DNA of 64,000 nucleotides from Nitrosopumilaceae archaeon (GTDB lineage: Archaea > Thermoproteota > Nitrososphaeria > Nitrososphaerales > Nitrosopumilaceae), in assembly GCA_965203465.1 (NCBI GenBank), contig CBDBCR010000003.1, positions 160,001 through 224,000 of the forward strand, in the 5' to 3' direction. The notes under the pieces are model-generated. The model worked only from the letters and a program-made list of their open reading frames with translations, ran no database searches and was not told the origin of the DNA. Positions 35,549-43,533 of the stretch are shown here, one piece after another. The translations under genes and the position numbers were made by a program. The stretch's first letter is position 1. Each line of letters opens with the position of its first letter.

Positions 35549-37600
35549 TCAGCTGCCGACGACCGCCGCGGACAGGCCCTCGGCGCTGCGCCGCACGGCC
35601 TCGACCACCGCGCCCGGATCCGACATGCCCGACAGGTCCTCGAGGCGGGCCTCGCCCATCAGGCAGACCCGCGGGGCCACGCTCCTGCCTCGCACCTGCG
35701 ATTCCACCCAGGAGGCCACCTGCCCGGGCGCGCCCGAGGCGGCGCGCGCGTCGTCCATCGACATGCGCAACCGGCCGCGCCGGTCCAGCACCACGACCGG
35801 GCGCCGCGCCCTGCCGAGCAGGCCGCCCTTCCTGTCCGCCGAGAACGCCACGTGGTGCTCGGTCGAGGCGGCCACCGAGGCGGGCGAGCCGAGCATCTGC
35901 GAGGCGCGCTCCAAGAGCTCGGCCTCGCCGAGGCGCCCCGAGTCGGAGCTGTCCATGTCCACGCTGCCCACCGCGCAGACGCGCAGCATCGCCTTTTCGG
36001 GGACGAACTCGGTCGACACCGAGACGGTCTGGGGCACCGCGCCGCGCGCTATCATCGAGTCGTGCGCCCCGCGCACGGCCGCCGAGACGGCGCCCGGATC
36101 CGGCGAGGACATCGGTATCTCGGATTCGTCCTGCATCATGGCGGAGGCGGCCCCTATCGACGATATCACCTCGGCGTCGGCGGCCAGCTCGTACTCCAGG
36201 CCCAGCTGCTTTGCCACGAACGGGGCCAGCACCGAGGCGCCGCCCCCGCCGCCGACGATGCGCGCCGAGCCGCCCAGGCCGAACTCCTTGACGGCGCGCG
36301 CGACCGCCTTTGTTATGGGGAACGATGCCGTCTGTATCACCGAGAGGGCCGCCTCCGAGTACGAGACGCCCAGCATCGAGCCGAGCATCCCGAGCGCCGA
36401 GCGCGCCGACTCTTGGCGCGCCGACGAGTTGTCCCCCGCGGGCAGCGAGTCGAGCGCGTTGGCGGCGCACGTGGGCGTTATCGCGAAGGCGCCCGAGCCC
36501 GACTCCACGACCGCGTACCTGCCGCCGGCCACGTCGAGCATTTTCGCCTCGCCGCCGGAGAGCTCGTCCGGCCCCGCGTAGCACGAGTACGTCAGGCCGG
36601 CGATGTGCGCGCTGCGCGGTCCCACCGAGTCTATCCTGCCGTTCTTGACCGAGACCAGGCTGCCGCCGGCGACTCCCAGCACGCGCACGTCCATGGAGCG
36701 CACGCACGTGGGGTGCTCGTCGACGGTCACGTACTTTATCTGCGGCCTGCCGCCGCGTATGACGCAGATGTTCGTGCTGGTCCCGCCAACCTCCACAAAC
36801 ACGCCGTCCGAGACGCGCGTGTGCAGCAGGGCGCCGGCCACGCTGGCCGCCGGGCCCGAGAGGACCGTCGATATGGGCTTTGTGCGGAACGCGCCCATGT
36901 CCGAGATCCCGCCGTCGCCGCGCATCACCATCAGCGGCGCGGCCACGCCGGCGCCGCGCAGCGCCGACTCCACGTAGTCTGCCACCTGCCTGGCGCGCGG
37001 CAGCACGCTGGCGTTGACCGCCGCGGTCAGCGTCCTTATCTCGAGGCCGTACGCGCCCGAGATCTCGTGCGAGGCCGTCGCCGGCAGGCCCTTTTTGCGG
37101 GCGCACTCCATGACGAACTCCTCGTTGGACGGATCGTCCACGCCGAACGCCTCGGTGGCCACGACCACCTCGGCGCCCCCCCCGCGCAGACGGCCGAGCG
37201 CCGAGCCGACCTCCTCTTCGGTGAGCAGCCTCGAGGTGTCCAGGAACTCGTGCAGCACGTCCATGGAGCCGGACAGGCGCGTGCGCCTCGTCACGTTCTT
37301 GCGCTCGGGCCCCACCCCCATGGCCACGACGCCCACGCGCGCCGTGTCCCGCTCGAGCAGCGCGTTTATGGCCTGCGTCGTGCTGTGCGATATCATGTCT
37401 ATCTGATCGGGCCGTATCTCCGAGCCCGACATCAGGGCCTCGAGGGCCGCCACTATGCCGCCGGCCACGCCGCGCGGATCAGAGTGCGTCGTGGGCACCG
37501 AGGCGCGGCCGGCCACCCCGCCGCCGCCCGACTCTACGGCGACGGCCTTTGTGAACGTGCCGCCCACGTCTATCCCTACGCGGAAGCGCCGCTCAGTCAT
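35549..37600 (-). CDS. Hydantoinase/oxoprolinase family protein
   Basis: GIDVGGTFTKAV, HSTTQAINALLE, LSGPAAS, EVGGTST. Confidence 0.88.
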   Translation of the reverse strand: MTERRFRVGIDVGGTFTKAVAVESGGGGVAGRASVPTTHSDPRGVAGGIVAALEALMSGSEIRPDQIDMISHSTTQAINALLERDTARVGVVAMGVGPERKNVTRRTRLSGSMDVLHEFLDTSRLLTEEEVGSALGRLRGGGAEVVVATEAFGVDDPSNEEFVMECARKKGLPATASHEISGAYGLEIRTLTAAVNASVLPRARQVADYVESALRGAGVAAPLMVMRGDGGISDMGAFRTKPISTVLSGPAASVAGALLHTRVSDGVFVEVGGTSTNICVIRGGRPQIKYVTVDEHPTCVRSMDVRVLGVAGGSLVSVKNGRIDSVGPRSAHIAGLTYSCYAGPDELSGGEAKMLDVAGGRYAVVESGSGAFAITPTCAANALDSLPAGDNSSARQESARSALGMLGSMLGVSYSEAALSVIQTASFPITKAVARAVKEFGLGGSARIVGGGGGASVLAPFVAKQLGLEYELAADAEVISSIGAASAMMQDESEIPMSSPDPGAVSAAVRGAHDSMIARGAVPQTVSVSTEFVPEKAMLRVCAVGSVDMDSSDSGRLGEAELLERASQMLGSPASVAASTEHHVAFSADRKGGLLGRARRPVVVLDRRGRLRMSMDDARAASGAPGQVASWVESQVRGRSVAPRVCLMGEARLEDLSGMSDPGAVVEAVRRSAEGLSAAVVGS

Positions 37601-39734
37601 GGCCCTTCCGCGAGACCCGCATCGACTCGAGGCGGGCCGCCCGGCGCGGGCGCAGCACCAGCACGTACAGCGAGGCGCCAAGGTACACCGAGAGCAGCAG
37701 TATCTGCGCGACGACCGTCTCGAGGGTCGGGTATATGCCGGTCATGGCCGCCGTGTTTATGTCCAGGCGCGGGACGGTGCCCAGCAGGCTCGTGTAGGGA
37801 ACGACGTCGATGACCTGCAGCTCCCGCACGCCGTTGCCGAGGAACGCTATGGACAGGTACGCGCCCACGCCCATGGTCAGCCCGAAGAGCGCCCGCAGCG
37901 GGAGCTTTTTGCCCAGCCGGCGCACCGCCCAGTATATGGCCAGCAGCGAGGCCAGGCCCAGCACGAAGCCGAGCGCCACGTACCCCTCCATGTACCGGGC
38001 GAAGCCGGACATGGCCTGGTAGAACAGGACCGTCTCGAAGCCCTCCCTGTACACCGTGAAGAATGCCAGCATCACGAAGACCGAGGCGCTGCCCGTCGCG
38101 GTGGCCTGCCACACCTTGGCCTTTACGAACTCCATCCACTTGCGGTGCTCCAGCTTGCCCAGCACCCAAAAGCTGACGTAGAACAGGACGGCCGTGGCCG
38201 AGAGCGCCGCGACGGCCTCTATCAGTTCCCGGTCGGCCCCCGATATCTCTATCAGGTAGGAGGCCACCGCCCAGGTGGCCGCCGTGGCGGCGACGGCGGC
38301 GGCCACGCCGTAGTACACGTACTTTGAAAAGCGCGTGTTGCGCGACGATTCCAGGTACATCAGTATGACCCCCAGTATCAGGACCGACTCGAGGCCCTCG
38401 CGGAATATTATGGCGAACGAAGAAGTAAACGCGATGGCCGGCGCCAGCGTGCCGGGCCCCGAGACGAGCCTCTCTGATTCGTCGAGGTTGCGGTCTATCG
38501 CGGTGGCCAAGGCCTGCACGTCCTCGGCCGGCTCGCCACGCGATATGGCGCTGCGCAGCTCGGCGAACTGGAACTCGACTTCGAGCGTAAAGTCCGGATC
38601 TATCGCGCGCAGGGGCACCTCGACGTACTCGTAGCTGTCGAGGTACGCGGTGCGCGCCAGCGCGTGCGCCTCAACGGCGTCGCCGGCCTCGTAGGTCGCG
38701 ACTGCCTCGCGCAGCGTGTCCCGGATGAAGTCAATCTCGCTGCGCACCTCGGACTTTTGGTCCTCGGTCGCGCTGCCTATGTCGAGCAGCTCCTTTTCGG
38801 GCGCCGGCCCCGAGGACGAGACGGCCGCCATGGCCTGGGCTATGGTCAGGCTCGGCAGTATGGTTTCGTTGAGGAAGGAGAGTATCTCGGGCGCGGGCCG
38901 CTCCTCCTTTATCATGTCGCGCAGGTCCTCGCGCATCTGCCACTCTAGCTCGTAGAGCAGATCGGGGTCGGCGCGCTCTATGTTGGCCTCGAGGTACTCG
39001 AAGTTCTCCAGGTACGCCTCGATGCACAGCTCTTCCGCCAGGGCGTAGTCGCCCTCTTCGAGAGCGGCGGACATGTCCGAGTACAGGGAGCGTATGTTGG
39101 CGTACAGGTGCGCCTCGTCGTGGCCGCCCAGCTCGTGCCCCGTCAGGTCGCGGCTGATGGCCGCGATCAGCGTCCCGACGGGGTGGAAGTCGTACTTTTC
39201 CTCCATCATCGATTCGAGCTCGTCCCAGAACGATTCCAGCTCCAGAAAGAGGCGTTCCTCGTGGCCCGCGGTGTCCGACAGCGCCCGGGCGCGCGCGACC
39301 AGGTCGCGCGAGAGCTCGTAGGCATCTTCGTTGCCGCCGCGCGAGTGCTCCTGGTAGGCCTCGTCGGCGGAGCCGAGCAGCAGCGATGCGGCAAGCGCCG
39401 GATCCGGCGAGACGGGCTCTATTCTGCCGAGCGCCTCGCGCACCTGCGCCGCCTTTTCGGAAAGATCCCCCCCCTGCGAGGCCTCGCTGTACAGGTCCAG
39501 CACCCCGATGTGGACCAGGTCGGCCGATTCGGGGTCTGCCTCGCGCAGGGAACCGAGGCCGGCTGCCACCACGTCGGCGGCCATCCGCATGGCGTACGAG
39601 TGGTCGCCGGGCCCGTCGGCCGAGCCGAGCGCCGAGGATACGGCCTCCTTTACGTAGAGGACCTGCGTGCCGTCCGCGTAGGCGGGGGCCGCGGCAAAGG
39701 CGGCCAGTGCCAGCAGCATCAGGCAACCGCGCAA
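37593..39734 (-). CDS. FTR1-family iron permease with N-terminal extracellular helical domains
   Basis: Two RExxE motifs (FREGLE, YREGFE); AYLENFEYLE and AYLDSYEYVE. Confidence 0.92.
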   Translation of the reverse strand: MRGCLMLLALAAFAAAPAYADGTQVLYVKEAVSSALGSADGPGDHSYAMRMAADVVAAGLGSLREADPESADLVHIGVLDLYSEASQGGDLSEKAAQVREALGRIEPVSPDPALAASLLLGSADEAYQEHSRGGNEDAYELSRDLVARARALSDTAGHEERLFLELESFWDELESMMEEKYDFHPVGTLIAAISRDLTGHELGGHDEAHLYANIRSLYSDMSAALEEGDYALAEELCIEAYLENFEYLEANIERADPDLLYELEWQMREDLRDMIKEERPAPEILSFLNETILPSLTIAQAMAAVSSSGPAPEKELLDIGSATEDQKSEVRSEIDFIRDTLREAVATYEAGDAVEAHALARTAYLDSYEYVEVPLRAIDPDFTLEVEFQFAELRSAISRGEPAEDVQALATAIDRNLDESERLVSGPGTLAPAIAFTSSFAIIFREGLESVLILGVILMYLESSRNTRFSKYVYYGVAAAVAATAATWAVASYLIEISGADRELIEAVAALSATAVLFYVSFWVLGKLEHRKWMEFVKAKVWQATATGSASVFVMLAFFTVYREGFETVLFYQAMSGFARYMEGYVALGFVLGLASLLAIYWAVRRLGKKLPLRALFGLTMGVGAYLSIAFLGNGVRELQVIDVVPYTSLLGTVPRLDINTAAMTGIYPTLETVVAQILLLSVYLGASLYVLVLRPRRAARLESMRVSRKGHD

Positions 39735-39901
39735 CGGGCCGCCGGGCCCCGGTTTTCTATTTAAGTCAAATACCAATTATACGATCGTGTAAAGCGGCCG
39801 TTCGCCGAAGGGCCCCGTCTTGCGTCGGCGTCTTGCCCCGGCCATGCCGCGCTCCGGATGCCGCTCTGCAAGCCCGGTGTTTTTGCTACTCGGCCACGCC
39901 T

Positions 39902-41239
39902 TTACGCGCCGTCTCTGCTTCCCGCGAACGGCACGCCCCTTGCGGTCTCGCATATGCAGCCCGCCCTCGCCTTGGGGCTGTCCGATATTGCGAACCCGTC
40001 CTTGATCTCCACCAGCTGGCGCGAATCGGGGTTTTCGCCTAATGCTTCCAGCATTCCGATCAGCTTGTTCACCGCCATGCTGGCGGCCATGGTGGTGAGC
40101 GATACGATGCTGGGCTGAGCTTCGAGCCCGTCATAGTATCCTTCGTTTGCAAGCCGCGTCCGCTCTCGGGCGGTCAGCGACTCTTGCAGGATCACGCGCC
40201 CGTCCAGCGTTCCGGTGCACCACAGGCACGGCCCGTCGGGCGTCACTGCCTGTACCTTGGCAACTGCCTGTAGCACGCCTCCCCCGTCTGCCATGTGGAT
40301 TCTGCACCCGACGTCGATCAGAGGCACCAAGTACCTGTGGGATACCTCGTTCAAAACGCACCTGCTAGTCAGGTTGTCGGTGCATGCGAACATGACATCG
40401 GACTCTATCAACGCGCCCCTCATGGCCACCGTCGACGCGTCGGCGCACACCGCCTCCACGTTACACTCTGAAAATGACGAGATGTGCTCCCCCACCACGA
40501 CTGACTTGGGCCTGCCCACGTCGGCGTCGGTCGCCCCGTACACCCGGGGCAGGTTGGTCGGATCCACAGAATCCATGTCTATCAGCCTCAACCGGCCCAC
40601 CCCCATCCGTGCAAGCTGCACGGCCACCGACGAGCCGGTGCCCCCGGCGCCGACCACCGTGACAGCCAGATCCCGCAGCTGCGATTGGGCGAGCCGCCCC
40701 AGCGCCCGCGCCTGCCGGTCGAACTTTGCAGGAGAGTCTCCGCACATGCCGGAGGGGCGTGCCAGCGTTTCGCCTGCGGCCCTTATGCGATCAACCTGAC
40801 AAAACTCGCCGTCCGCGTCGCGCACCACGCCGCGCGCATCCTCCATGCCGAACACGAGGCTGCCCAGCGGCCTGTCCGGCAGTATATGGCCCAGGTTTTC
40901 GAGTAGGCGAACGTTGGACTCTTGGTCGATTTTGCCGAACTCGGCGCGGCGAGAGCTCGGATGGGTGTGCGCGAAAACCAGCCCAAGGCCCCCCTCGTCG
41001 GCCCTCATCGCGCATCGGTTCACGAACGACGAGTTGGGCTCGAGTTCCACGCTCGACGCCCTGTTCCACGAGCCCGCTTCCGGTTCCAGAATTTCCGCCA
41101 CCAGCAGGCCGGCAGACTTTTGCGTGCGGTAGTGTCGCACCAGCAGAAAGCACCCGTTCTCGCGAGGGGCCGTAGAAAACAGCAACCTGCGCAGATCGCG
41201 GTACAGTTTGCCCGGAAACGCCACTGTCCACACGGTCAA
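39902..41239 (-). CDS. JAB/MPN metallopeptidase - ThiF/E1-like adenylation enzyme fusion
   Basis: N-terminal ENGCF...AHTHP...FGKID; C-terminal FDRQ, VVGAGGTGS, DMDSVDPTNLPR, ACTDN, PCLWC, CIC; TTG start overlaps the E2 stop. Confidence 0.9.
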   Translation of the reverse strand: MTVWTVAFPGKLYRDLRRLLFSTAPRENGCFLLVRHYRTQKSAGLLVAEILEPEAGSWNRASSVELEPNSSFVNRCAMRADEGGLGLVFAHTHPSSRRAEFGKIDQESNVRLLENLGHILPDRPLGSLVFGMEDARGVVRDADGEFCQVDRIRAAGETLARPSGMCGDSPAKFDRQARALGRLAQSQLRDLAVTVVGAGGTGSSVAVQLARMGVGRLRLIDMDSVDPTNLPRVYGATDADVGRPKSVVVGEHISSFSECNVEAVCADASTVAMRGALIESDVMFACTDNLTSRCVLNEVSHRYLVPLIDVGCRIHMADGGGVLQAVAKVQAVTPDGPCLWCTGTLDGRVILQESLTARERTRLANEGYYDGLEAQPSIVSLTTMAASMAVNKLIGMLEALGENPDSRQLVEIKDGFAISDSPKARAGCICETARGVPFAGSRDGA

Positions 41240-41624
41240 TCCTCCCCCGGTAGCCTCTGCTGCACGTACGCTACGAACCCCGCAATGTCGCCGCGCGACG
41301 GGTTCCATCCGCGCTCTCTATAAGTGGAGTAGCTGAACCTGCGCCATGCTCGTCCCAGGCGTGATTCTTCCACCTCGCCCCCCGCGGGAATTTGGCCATC
41401 GCGCAATGCAAGAGACGTATCTGCCCAAAACACGCCAAACCCGGCCTGCTGGCAATAGGGCGTAGTAAACACCATTACGCGGCCACATCCATGTTGTGCG
41501 TTCCTTTAGGTACCGGGAAGTCTCGGAATGCGACGTAGGTTTTTGCGTTGCGTTCTGTGACAAACGTACCAAATCTACTCTTTTGCAGGACGGCCAAATC
41601 GCTGTCCAGATCGTGTGGGATCAA
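41236..41624 (-). pseudogene. Prokaryotic E2-like (family E) conjugating enzyme, frameshifted near 41477
   Basis: Frame 1 MIPHDLDSDLAVL...FRDFPVPKGTHNMDVAA* (41624-41475); frame 2 VMVFTTPY...FWAD..LALRDGQIP...GRAWRRFSY...WNPSRGDIAGFV..VQQRL. Confidence 0.8.
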
Positions 41625-41842
41625 CCGTACGGCACGCTCTTTAGTATGGCATTACATTGCATGCCGCACTCTATAGTCACAGCGGCATCGGGTGCCAGTT
41701 TTTCGGCGTCCCGTCCACTCATCTTAAACAGGTCGTATTCGTCTGGTGTTAAGCCGGCCAATTCGAGTACCCGCCTTCCTTGTAGCGGGCCCTCATCAAC
41801 ACGGATCTCTTGCTTGTTGACCCGAATCACGCAAGTCGCCAT
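41621..41842 (-). CDS. Ubiquitin-like beta-grasp protein (multi-ubiquitin domain type) ending in Gly
   Basis: 73 aa: IRVNKQE...LQGRRVLELAGL.PDEYDLF...LAPDAAVTI..GMQ.NAILKSVPYG*. Confidence 0.85.
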   Translation of the reverse strand: MATCVIRVNKQEIRVDEGPLQGRRVLELAGLTPDEYDLFKMSGRDAEKLAPDAAVTIECGMQCNAILKSVPYG

Positions 41843-41863
41843 GCCCCTGTGCATGCAGGGTAT

Positions 41864-41894
41864 GATTTAAGGGCATCTCACTTAACAAGGTTAA
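41864..41894 (-). promoter_or_regulatory. TATA-like box and TTAAC-N3-GTTAA palindrome upstream of the Ubl operon
   Basis: TTAAAT on the - strand about 25 nt before ATG 41842; ttaacaaggttaa at 41882-41894. Confidence 0.45.
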
Positions 41895-42244
41895 TCGCGT
41901 GAACAAGATCAATAAAGTAAAGATGCGCCAAGCCGCGGACAACACTGGGATCCACGTAGCCCCGGCAGGCTGCGATGTCAAGAGGGCGTCCGATCCGCTG
42001 ATGGCCACGCATGCCGATGCCCTGTCGTGCACGTGCGTGACAACTATGCCACCGCCAAGTTTCTAGACGTGGTTTGCCGAGAACCAAATCTACGTCAACG
42101 TATCCACGGGCAGAGATCACCGCGATAGCCGGATGCCGTCGTGCATGGCGTGGTGCGCAGCGCCGTATTACGCGCCCTCGTATCAGAACAGATCCGTCTC
42201 CAGACACGAGAAGTCATGCGTAATTACTCTCAGTTCGCGTATCC

Positions 42245-42497
42245 ATGCCTAGAAAACGCGAACATGGGCATTTACGCATGACTTCTACGGAGTACGTAAT
42301 GGGGCTATTCTGGCGATCATTGAAAAATCGCCTCCCCTTCTGCATGTCAGGCAGGCATGAAACGGAATCTTCCATGACCGGCAGAATAGATCCAATGGAA
42401 GAGCGGAAGTTCGTCTCTGAAGGCCAGCGGGCGCAGAAGCGAAGTGCGGGTTACCGAGCAGGGCAAAAAAGCGCTCAAAATATTCGGCACATCGTAG
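42245..42497 (+). pseudogene. Decayed MarR-like winged-helix regulator
   Basis: Fragments across frames: LRMTSTEY, AILAIIEKSPP, SMTGRIDPMEERKFV, VTEQGKKALKIF. Confidence 0.45.
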
Positions 42498-42817
42498 AGT
42501 GTGCGCTCTGCGCCAGACGGGTTTACCAGACACGTTGGCCGGTTGTGCGATGCCAGTGAAGGTATCTGGTAGCCCAACACGTCACGTTATGCGTGACTGC
42601 CGACATTCTGACAGAGGCGGCGTTTTGCGTGTCGAGTTCATGCGCTTGCCTCCGATCAGGCAATTCCGGCAACTCCCGGCCGCCCCTGCGAGCCAGCATT
42701 TCCGGCAATGCGCTTTTCGACTGCGAGACGTTCGGTGAACGCGTCGTCTGCCACGGCCAGACATCCCGCGTCGTAGTGGCAAGAGCGTTGCGCACGTGCC
42801 TCTGCCGCCTGCCGCGT

Positions 42818-43312
42818 TCAGGCCCGCCCTATCTTCTTTTTGTAGTACGCTTTGGTCTCTTCGTCAGGAATGACGGTGTGAAACGCGCGCGGTCTGTAGT
42901 GCTTCTTCCACGGAGTGTCGCTTGCGTGGGTGAGCGCTATGAGGCGGTTGCCGGACAGTTTTCCGTAGACGTCTATGACGGCGTCCAGTATCTCGCGCCT
43001 TTTTTCGTCTATCCTGCTCTTGAAAAAGTCCAACCGGTCTCCGAATTCAGGCTTGCCAAACGCCGTGCCGCAGTATTCCAACGACTGGATGGGATCCGAT
43101 TCGTGGTCTCTCAGCGCGAAATACAGCGACGGAAATACCGGCCCGTACCTCCACGCCTGGGCCTTTTCCCTGACCAGAGGCACGTCGAGCGCCGCCAGCG
43201 AGTACCCGTGGGCGATGTACGCCGTTTTGATTACTTGGAGCGAGGTCACGCTTGCCTTGCTGTTCGCTATTATGTAGTCGGCAACAAGCAACGCCGAATA
43301 ACCCCCGTCCAT
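42818..43312 (-). CDS. Panacea (DUF4065/SocA) antitoxin-domain protein
   Basis: VADYII...TSLQVIKTAYIAHG...AQAWRYGPVFPSLY...YGKLSGNRLIALTH..TPW. Confidence 0.9.
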   Translation of the reverse strand: MDGGYSALLVADYIIANSKASVTSLQVIKTAYIAHGYSLAALDVPLVREKAQAWRYGPVFPSLYFALRDHESDPIQSLEYCGTAFGKPEFGDRLDFFKSRIDEKRREILDAVIDVYGKLSGNRLIALTHASDTPWKKHYRPRAFHTVIPDEETKAYYKKKIGRA

Positions 43313-43533
43313 CGTGCATCTGCACAAAAGCCCGTATTAAAAGATGGTTCGGCAGGTTTTGTTCGGTAGCTGGCGGCTGGTGCCTGCGCTAGGCGGCTTC
43401 CCGTCTGATCGGCTTTCCCCAGATGCCGAACCCGGTTGCGCGGCGGCACGCCCAGGAAAAGCTGCATGCCCGACGGTCTGGCCGGCCGCCCCGACTGCGG
43501 ACAGCATTGCGGATCTGTCGGCGTCCCGTCCGC

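Follow-up and report, generated by a model that had tools for sequence, protein, structure and literature searches.

Organization of the locus

We analyzed a stretch of 64,000 nucleotides, referred to here as the window, from a Nitrosopumilaceae archaeon (assembly GCA_965203465.1, contig CBDBCR010000003.1, positions 160,001 to 224,000), which carries a small operon for a ubiquitin-like protein (Ubl), an E2-like protein and a JAB domain fused to an E1 domain. Four overlapping open reading frames (ORFs) on the minus strand span positions 39902 to 41854 according to the ORF list and the sequence. The first encodes a BubA-like Ubl of 77 amino acids (41621..41854, minus strand; ATG at 41854), or of 73 amino acids from the second ATG at 41842. 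It is followed by two pieces of an E2, namely an N-terminal fragment of 49 amino acids with a TTG start (41475..41624, minus strand), which ends at the TAA at 41475-41477, and a C-terminal fragment of 79 amino acids of the BubB/Prok-E2_E type (41236..41475, minus strand), assigned from Pfam and the sequence. The last gene encodes a BubCD-like JAB/JAMM-E1 fusion of 445 amino acids (39902..41239, minus strand), whose TTG start overlaps the E2 stop; the same ORF is open upstream to an ATG at 41308 (39902..41308, minus strand), giving 468 amino acids. The junctions read TTGA between the Ubl and the N-terminal E2 fragment, TAATG between the two E2 fragments and TTGA between the C-terminal E2 fragment and the E1, the last coupling presupposing the TTG at 41239 as the E1 start, with which the 445-amino-acid gene call P0001 agrees. 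A preliminary description, made from the sequence alone, had presented the operon as three overlap-coupled genes. The overlaps were confirmed, but the E2 is not a single gene, since it consists of two ORFs split by an in-frame TAA.

The host genome (2.26 Mb, 4 contigs, 96.9% complete) encodes an archaeal AmoA (383 bits), indicating that the host is an ammonia oxidizer, as had been supposed. Neither an Rfam scan nor a tRNA scan of the window gave a match.

The Ubl and the JAB-E1 fusion

The Ubl matched the Pfam family Multi_ubiq with 30.1 bits (cut-off, 24.5 bits); no PADLOC or NCBIfam model gave it a score. Its AlphaFold2 model had a predicted local distance difference test (pLDDT) value of 85.5, and the top Foldseek matches of this model were the multi-ubiquitin structures 8u38 and 9d5b and Citrobacter BubA (9ea8_B), with template modeling (TM) scores of 0.74 to 0.75. 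The matched part of BubA comprises residues 155 to 229, and the E value of about 1e-3 is as expected for 77 residues. These matches uphold the initial assignment of a 73-amino-acid beta-grasp protein ending in VPYG. In the window, the C terminus is indeed VPYG followed by the stop, without a C-terminal extension. The Y76-G77 pair was invariant across 13 sequences, and none of the six columns invariant in 12 relatives was changed. Among the Ubl homologues, 10 of 24 carry 1 to 11 residues beyond the Gly, which fits a trimming role for the JAB domain. In one high-GC relative (G089; L024:7470-7934), the Ubl contains a Gly/Pro/Gln-rich tandem insert, with repeats of about nine residues, inside the beta-grasp domain.

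The 468-amino-acid ORF matched ThiF with 125.5 bits and, weakly, Prok-JAB with 14.6 bits, and it displays the motif series ENG...HTHP...D. Its best solved relative was Citrobacter BubCD (9ea4; E value, 1.6e-28; 103 bits), in a single alignment that covered both domains (query residues 34 to 430, chain residues 14 to 412); ThiF and MoeB structures came next, with E values of 1e-13. The JAB-ThiF/E1 fusion named in the preliminary description was thus borne out. In this alignment, the Tyr of NEGYYDG pairs with Tyr 372 of the BubCD chain, which is native Y370 when the 2-residue tag is counted, and the Arg of NLPRV pairs with R227. Residues E50, H114, H116, D128, R255, Y391, C361/C364 and C451/C453 were invariant in an alignment of 17 E1s. 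The crossover loop contains no Cys between the CxxC motif and the Tyr, and the invariant C361-x-x-C364 stands at the base of the loop; these two cysteines most likely form a zinc site together with C451 and C453, but they may have a part in catalysis. Two of the 72 columns invariant in 16 relatives were changed in the window. One of these changes, S125G, affects the JAMM Ser: in the alignment with BubCD, G125 stands opposite this Ser (H-x-H...S-x-x-D), and Gly at this position was found only in the window copy.

The protein contains one adenylation domain only, to which the JAB is joined N-terminally. It also matched ThiF/MoeB models with 60 to 85 bits and its CxxC...CxC cysteines resemble those of MoeB, as would suit a sulfur-carrier pair (ThiS/MoaD with ThiF/MoeB) serving a cofactor or tRNA thiolation rather than conjugation. 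We find such a role hardly credible, since the scores of the ThiF, MoeB and UbaA models all stay far under their cut-offs and BubCD is the closest solved structure across both domains. In addition, the Ubl and E1 genes have a BubB-type E2 between them in 33 of the 33 loci that include this part, and the neighboring genes encode a CARF regulator, TIR, DAC and Mrr-like proteins instead of cofactor functions. Homologous operons next to sulfur-carrier cofactor genes and devoid of an E2, which would have refuted the preliminary description on its own terms, were not seen among these loci.

The E2 gene is frameshifted and has lost active-site residues

The 79-amino-acid E2 fragment matched Pfam Prok-E2_E with 29.3 bits (cut-off, 25 bits), over profile positions 55 to 120 of 123 only, and the E2-like sequence carries FWAD...GRAWRRFS...WNP. 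The 49-amino-acid fragment had no family match and aligns to residues 1 to 50 of intact E2 homologues. Alignment to 14 intact homologues from the same archaeal family identified the two small ORFs as the halves of one E2. Where the window reads NMDVAA, a stop and then MVFTT, the E2 of the relatives reads ...NIEKTSLLIFTT...; at the break itself, TSLLIFTT in the relatives stands against VAA, stop, MVFTT in the window. Compared with the homologues, one base is missing, in the codon before the ATG. The resulting TAATG (41473..41477, minus strand), recognized in the sequence and in the homologue alignment, is a stop overlapping a start in another frame. Inspection of the junction by eye revealed no slippery heptamer of the kind used in programmed frameshifting.

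An assembly or sequencing error in an otherwise intact operon was considered very improbable. The assembly, with its four contigs, is of a kind that can contain indel errors, but the junction was spanned with 0 gaps by contigs of runs X1, X3, X4 and X6, which come from four studies. Contigs of X3, X4 and X6, the three further studies, covered at least 41416-41644 with 0 gaps and 1 to 2 substitutions (an X3 contig joint at 41357-41617 was not counted, one of its sides having only 29 letters), and no indel was listed between 39902 and 41854 in the strain contigs. Moreover, the break site is not a homopolymer, and the lost Asp and His described below are substitutions, independent of the indel.

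A profile built from 16 intact E2 homologues had Citrobacter BubB (9eae_C) as its sole significant match (E value, 6.6e-15), and the Asp, Ser and His of the family align with D299, S333 and H335 of the Citrobacter protein. According to a preprint by Ye, Gong, Chambers and Corbett (bioRxiv 10.1101/2024.11.21.623953), these residues form a triad, and in Bub conjugation the Ubl is carried as an oxyester by a Tyr of the E1 and by a Ser of the E2. Of the 11 columns that do not vary among 16 relatives, 5 were changed in the window E2 (Y59C, P60Q, D65G, H100S and D112G). A Ser in WxRFS had been pointed out in the preliminary description. This Ser was found (RRFSYS), but its partners in the family, Asp and His, are replaced by Gly and Ser, respectively. 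Both corresponding motifs, D[MN]F and S-x-H, were kept in 32 of the 32 intact E2 homologues of the examined loci; the E2 cluster has 37 members, namely these 32, three Ubl ORFs and the two fragments of the window. An exhaustive search of 1.84 billion representatives yielded 41 proteins besides the window E2 at an E value of ≤0.001: 34 with both motifs, one truncated, one with a change of H to Y and five repetitive chance matches. Both motifs were therefore kept in 34 of the 36 E2-like proteins among these other representatives. The nearest representative is 51% identical and intact. A word-indexed search with the C-terminal fragment returned only the fragment itself (3 candidates), a weak negative given the result of the exhaustive search. 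PADLOC gave no score for the fragment, and the E2 of an intact paralogue had none in PADLOC or NCBIfam.

Given the frameshift in the E2 and the loss of both partners of its Ser, Asp and His, the window copy, to judge from its sequence, is most likely unable to conjugate through its own E2. The protein-conjugation system inferred in the preliminary description was thus not sustained for the window copy.

The divergent regulator is a pseudogene within a lower-GC stretch

On the plus strand lies the remnant of a CARF-winged helix-turn-helix (wHTH) regulator of the HFX_2341_N plus DUF6293_C type (41935..42494), a pseudogene detected by tblastn. With the intact regulators of the related loci L023 and L025 as queries, we found two pieces, an N-terminal one at 41935-42195, which shows a stop and a gap of some 40 residues, and a C-terminal one at 42390-42494, with 54 to 67% identity. 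The strain contigs vary in this remnant through indels of 5, 1 and 2 nt and through a skip of 246 nt. Within the remnant, a repeat scan revealed an element of 78 bp whose ends form perfect inverted repeats of 15 nt (42209..42286), of which the genome has three copies (two on contig C3 and one on contig C2). All four runs showed raised depth and loose ends at both edges of the element, with varied flanks, and one X6 contig skips 42205-42287, as if the site of the element were empty (depth 3.8, one contig). Together with the loss of the JAB motif Ser, the loss of the regulator gives the locus the look of general decay.

GC content is 0.53 to 0.61 across 41000-43500 versus 0.66 to 0.76 in the flanks, and at third codon positions the Ubl gene has a GC content of 0.59 and the E1 gene one of 0.77, versus 0.87 to 0.93 for the neighboring genes. 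The lower-GC island of the preliminary description was therefore confirmed, and the lower GC fits a horizontal arrival. A repeat scan detected no convincing direct repeats bounding the low-GC stretch.

Related operons occur in the same genome and family

Intact syntenic copies in archaea, a search for which had been suggested at the outset, do exist, and two of them are in the same genome. These two Type I-like operons with intact E2s (L001, G000:C1:881787-885113; L002, G000:C1:378314-381613) have E1s 37 to 39% identical to that of the window and E2s 28 to 34% identical to its E2 fragment. Their Ubls end in G-R and G-A. Beside the Ubl, both have a membrane protein of 112 to 118 amino acids and a helical protein of 85 to 92 amino acids, the latter matching no Pfam or NCBIfam family; these neighbors are conserved in four loci (L001, L002, L031 and L032). 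The genome also holds a Type II Bub operon on another contig than the window (L022, G000:C1:729355-732531), comprising an 81-amino-acid Ubl, a 400-amino-acid E2-E1 fusion (PRK06153.1-4, 469.8 bits) and a DUF6527 protein of 133 amino acids (80.7 bits), which is the sole DUF6527 of the genome. A three-Cys-motif partner protein, TcmP (209.6 bits), adjoins it.

Within the same family, Prok-E2_E was found in 12 of 201 sampled genomes (11 over the cut-off), representing 9 of 27 genera, and in 0 of 4 other genomes of the same genus. DUF6527 (BubE) scored over the cut-off in 0 of the 10 other operon-bearing family genomes. Both tallies include genome G077, which is flagged as unpublished; without it they are 11 of 200 and 0 of 9. 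Among 401 genomes sampled from the phylum, Prok-E2_E exceeded the cut-off in 3 genomes, all Nitrosopumilaceae, and in none outside the family. Clade-specific patterns applied to all species genomes retrieved 8 loci, titled Thaumarchaeota, Nitrosopumilaceae, Nitrosopumilus, Nitrosotenuis or Nitrososphaeria. A search of viral contigs with the E1 alignment gave no match, and a search for related loci in genome contigs with a single E1 as query gave nothing.

The nearest genome relatives of the window E1 (49 to 52% identity) are in host genomes of 34 to 70% GC, and all of these nearest relatives belong to ammonia-oxidizing archaea. Plasmid homologues of the JAB-E1 fusion, bacterial ones and two from Natribaculum, were 29 to 36% identical (117 records). 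Since the relatives at about 50% identity are all ammonia-oxidizing archaea and the bacterial plasmid homologues reach only 29 to 36%, exchange within the archaeal family would fit better than a recent bacterial gift. The horizontal acquisition inferred in the preliminary description fits the lower GC content. The two Natribaculum homologues (about 31% identity) are carried by megaplasmids of N. longum and N. luteum; Bub-like E1s thus occur in a second archaeal group, which we take to be haloarchaeal.

Gene neighborhoods of the clade

Altogether, 39 loci were compared (24 from metagenomes, 14 from genomes, plus the window), including the near-duplicate pairs L041/42, L044/45 and L055/56. An intact CARF-wHTH gene divergent from the Ubl was present in 17 of the 38 loci besides the window, and most of the loci in which it is missing end upstream of the Ubl. 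The intact regulators scored 105 to 108 bits with HFX_2341_N, 46 to 54 bits with DUF6293_C and 172 bits with PADLOC CARF3.

Directly after the E1, seven loci encode a TIR_2 protein (28 to 53 bits), whose gene in L023, L035 and L051 adjoins the stop of the E1 or overlaps with it. Elsewhere, this slot is taken by a DACNG-DACNH-DAC protein, an Mrr_cat protein or proteins that we could not assign. The DACNG-DACNH-DAC protein lies right after the E1 in two near-identical metagenome loci (L044:3449-5239 and L045:3430-5220) and has two predicted sensor domains besides its DAC domain, which Pfam places in the diadenylate-cyclase family. With the TIR proteins of six relatives as tblastn queries (E limit, 1e-3), no TIR gene was found anywhere in the host genome. 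A model of the TIR protein (pLDDT, 85.7) showed a strand-only N-terminal part (residues 9 to 125) followed by a helix/strand TIR part, and Foldseek matched this model only to glycosidases with low TM scores (TMq, 0.20 to 0.33). Complex prediction for the E2 of an intact relative and its TIR neighbor scored 0.00, a value obtained without controls that is no evidence either way.

Comparison with known systems

To judge from these sequence comparisons, the operon family is Bub-type (6E.1), and not of the Bil, SAMP/UbaA or eukaryote-like kind. The closest described system is BubAB-BubCD-BubE of Citrobacter, a Type I Bub (6E.1/DUF6527) presented in the preprint cited above (10.1101/2024.11.21.623953). 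With Type I, the window family shares a Ubl of the Multi_ubiq type with a C-terminal Gly, an E2 of the BubB/Prok-E2_E family in which Ser takes the place of Cys, a JAB-E1 fusion with Tyr at the crossover-loop position and Arg at the adenylation position, and the gene order Ubl, E2, JAB-E1. However, the window operon has no adjoining BubE/DUF6527, whereas all Bub operons encode BubE according to the preprint (10.1101/2024.11.21.623953). Further differences are that the regulator of the clade is CARF-wHTH while Bub has CapW or CapH plus CapP, that some clade loci have TIR as a fourth gene and the host is archaeal, that the invariant CxxC...CxC of the clade E1s has no counterpart at the aligned Citrobacter positions, and that the window E2 is broken and lacks the active-site Asp and His that are invariant in Type I. 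Type II Bub (6E.2: BubA, BubBD and BubE) belongs to the same wider family, but it has an E2-E1 fusion, DUF6527 and no JAB, whereas in the window operon the E2 is free, the JAB is fused to the E1 and DUF6527 is absent.

The layout had initially been likened to Bil and Bub operons together. The Bub side of this comparison was supported by the BubCD and BubB matches, but the Bil side was not. Bil (BilABCD) also brings Ubl, E2, JAB and E1 together and the Ubl model resembles the BilA-type 8u38; however, Bil has a separate JAB and an IAD-AAD-CYS E1, as the preprint describes it (10.1101/2024.11.21.623953), in contrast to the fused JAB and single adenylation domain of the window. The SAMP/UbaA/HvJAMM1 system of Haloferax likewise combines an archaeal beta-grasp modifier, a ThiF-type E1 and a JAMM peptidase, but SAMPylation proceeds without an E2 and its JAMM is free-standing, whereas the operon family of the window has an E2. 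The UbaA model NF047750 scored 65.3 bits on the window E1 against a cut-off of 450 bits, so that the original separation from SAMP/UbaA was correct. Type II CBASS (an antiphage system that signals through cyclic oligonucleotides) with Cap2/Cap3 and TIR resembles the clade in having an E1/E2-type ligase, a JAB peptidase and a TIR effector in one operon, and in being a defense linked to a nucleotide signal; PADLOC E1-E2 models of the Cap2 type matched the E1 domain with up to 59.9 bits. Nevertheless, CBASS has no separate Ubl, since the cyclase itself is conjugated, and Cap2 is an E2-E1 fusion with Cys chemistry, whereas the window has no cyclase.

In Table S1 of the preprint (PMC11601596, file 2), searched by archaeal-name terms, the only archaeal rows found were "Ca. 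Nitrosopumilus adriaticus" and "Uncultured Crenarchaeota C2", both Type II. Many Type I rows of that table have separate Ubl and E2 genes, with DUF6527 in every row seen (PMC11601596). A published survey, in the part used here, lists a Jab-E1 fusion in the methanogen RC1. In a literature search that was not exhaustive, DUF6527 or "Bub operons" came up only in two preprints by Corbett and colleagues and in two papers on CapK, no paper paired these terms with the names Nitrosopumilus, Thaumarchaeota or Nitrososphaera, and papers on CARF, TIR, JAB, ubiquitin-like proteins and archaea did not describe the arrangement in their titles or the starts of their abstracts. The preliminary description had taken the system to be undescribed in this lineage. 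This does not hold for Bub as a whole, given the Type II entry of Ca. Nitrosopumilus adriaticus (PMC11601596); for the archaeal, Type I-like, BubE-less and CARF-linked clade, no description was found in that search.

Interpretation

Taken together, the locus is probably a decaying remnant of a horizontally moved cassette that belongs to a Type I Bub-like (6E.1) clade of ammonia-oxidizing archaea. By analogy with the biochemistry of Citrobacter Bub, the JAB domain of an intact member would cut any tail off the Ubl, back to the terminal Gly, and the E1 domain would adenylate this Gly. The Ubl would then pass to the crossover-loop Tyr of the E1 as an oxyester, from there to the Ser of the E2, helped by His and Asp, and finally to a Lys of the target. 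The divergent CARF-wHTH regulator would probably control transcription of the operon, and the TIR-domain protein, which appears to be co-transcribed in some loci, would be a likely effector or target.

Several points weigh against this reading. The Ubl and the JAB-E1 of the window copy are open, and the adenylation and Tyr residues of the E1 are intact. E1 relatives at 77 to 83% identity are full length, and the single-nucleotide polymorphisms (SNPs) in the E1 between strains comprised 15 nonsynonymous and 14 synonymous ones (n = 29; a small, nonrandom sample). The TAATG could allow reinitiation, so that both E2 halves are made. In Citrobacter, the part of the preprint used here reports only the S333A/H335A double mutant and not the loss of His alone (10.1101/2024.11.21.623953). 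Finally, the putative functional tie of the CARF and TIR genes to the operon comes from gene order only.

Some of these points bear on the possibility that the locus is still functional, with the E1 and the Ubl acting without a cognate E2, be it by SAMPylation-like direct transfer, with a paralogous E2 in trans or with the E2 fragments as a noncatalytic adaptor. The ratio of nonsynonymous to synonymous SNPs in the E1, about 1:1, is below the neutral expectation for nonsynonymous changes, suggesting that the E1-Ubl pair may still be used. In line with this, 70 of 72 invariant residues of the E1 and 6 of 6 of the Ubl are kept, the close E1 relatives are intact, the genome has two intact E2 paralogues, and the TAATG permits coupled translation. 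Moreover, a BubA-BubCD species forms without E2 in Citrobacter, but it was judged to be off-pathway by the authors of the preprint (10.1101/2024.11.21.623953). Cross-talk with the paralogues is doubtful given their low identity to the window proteins (E2s, 28 to 34%; E1s, 37 to 39%), and the combined loss of the JAMM Ser and the regulator again resembles general decay. We therefore regard a functional locus as unlikely.

A broader proposal sees in the clade a distinct archaeal defense system, in which a CARF-wHTH sensor of a nucleotide signal would switch on a Ser/Tyr-oxyester Ubl module without BubE, thereby arming or targeting a TIR NADase or another variable fourth gene, and in which the E1-Ubl pair of the window would outlive the E2 through an E2-independent, SAMP-like role. 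As a whole, we consider this proposal rather improbable. The partners of the clade point to an antiviral or conflict role. An antiviral or stress-related role had been called probable in the preliminary description, but an antiphage role has not been shown for Bub itself, and its authors found no phage protection in E. coli according to the part of the preprint used here (10.1101/2024.11.21.623953).

Returning to the cassette remnant, the window copy would exemplify an order of decay in which the first losses hit the E2, the regulator and the peptidase motif, and the E1 and the tag persist. Bub is a recently characterized Cys-free ubiquitin-like pathway, and a sizeable archaeal clade that appears from its sequences to use Bub chemistry is now seen in the globally important ammonia-oxidizing archaea. 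The partners of this clade differ from those of Bub, with a CARF-family regulator, in some loci TIR, DAC or an Mrr-like nuclease, and no BubE, and the BubE-less loci offer natural test cases for the need of BubE.

Other genes beside the operon

A SocA/Panacea-domain protein (62.5 bits), for which no toxin partner was identified, is encoded at 42818..43327 on the minus strand, within the same lower-GC stretch. Directly downstream of the E1, on the same strand, lies the gene for a 727-amino-acid protein (37593..39776, minus strand), whose long N-terminal part matched no family and whose C-terminal half is of the FTR1 iron-permease type (78.5 bits).

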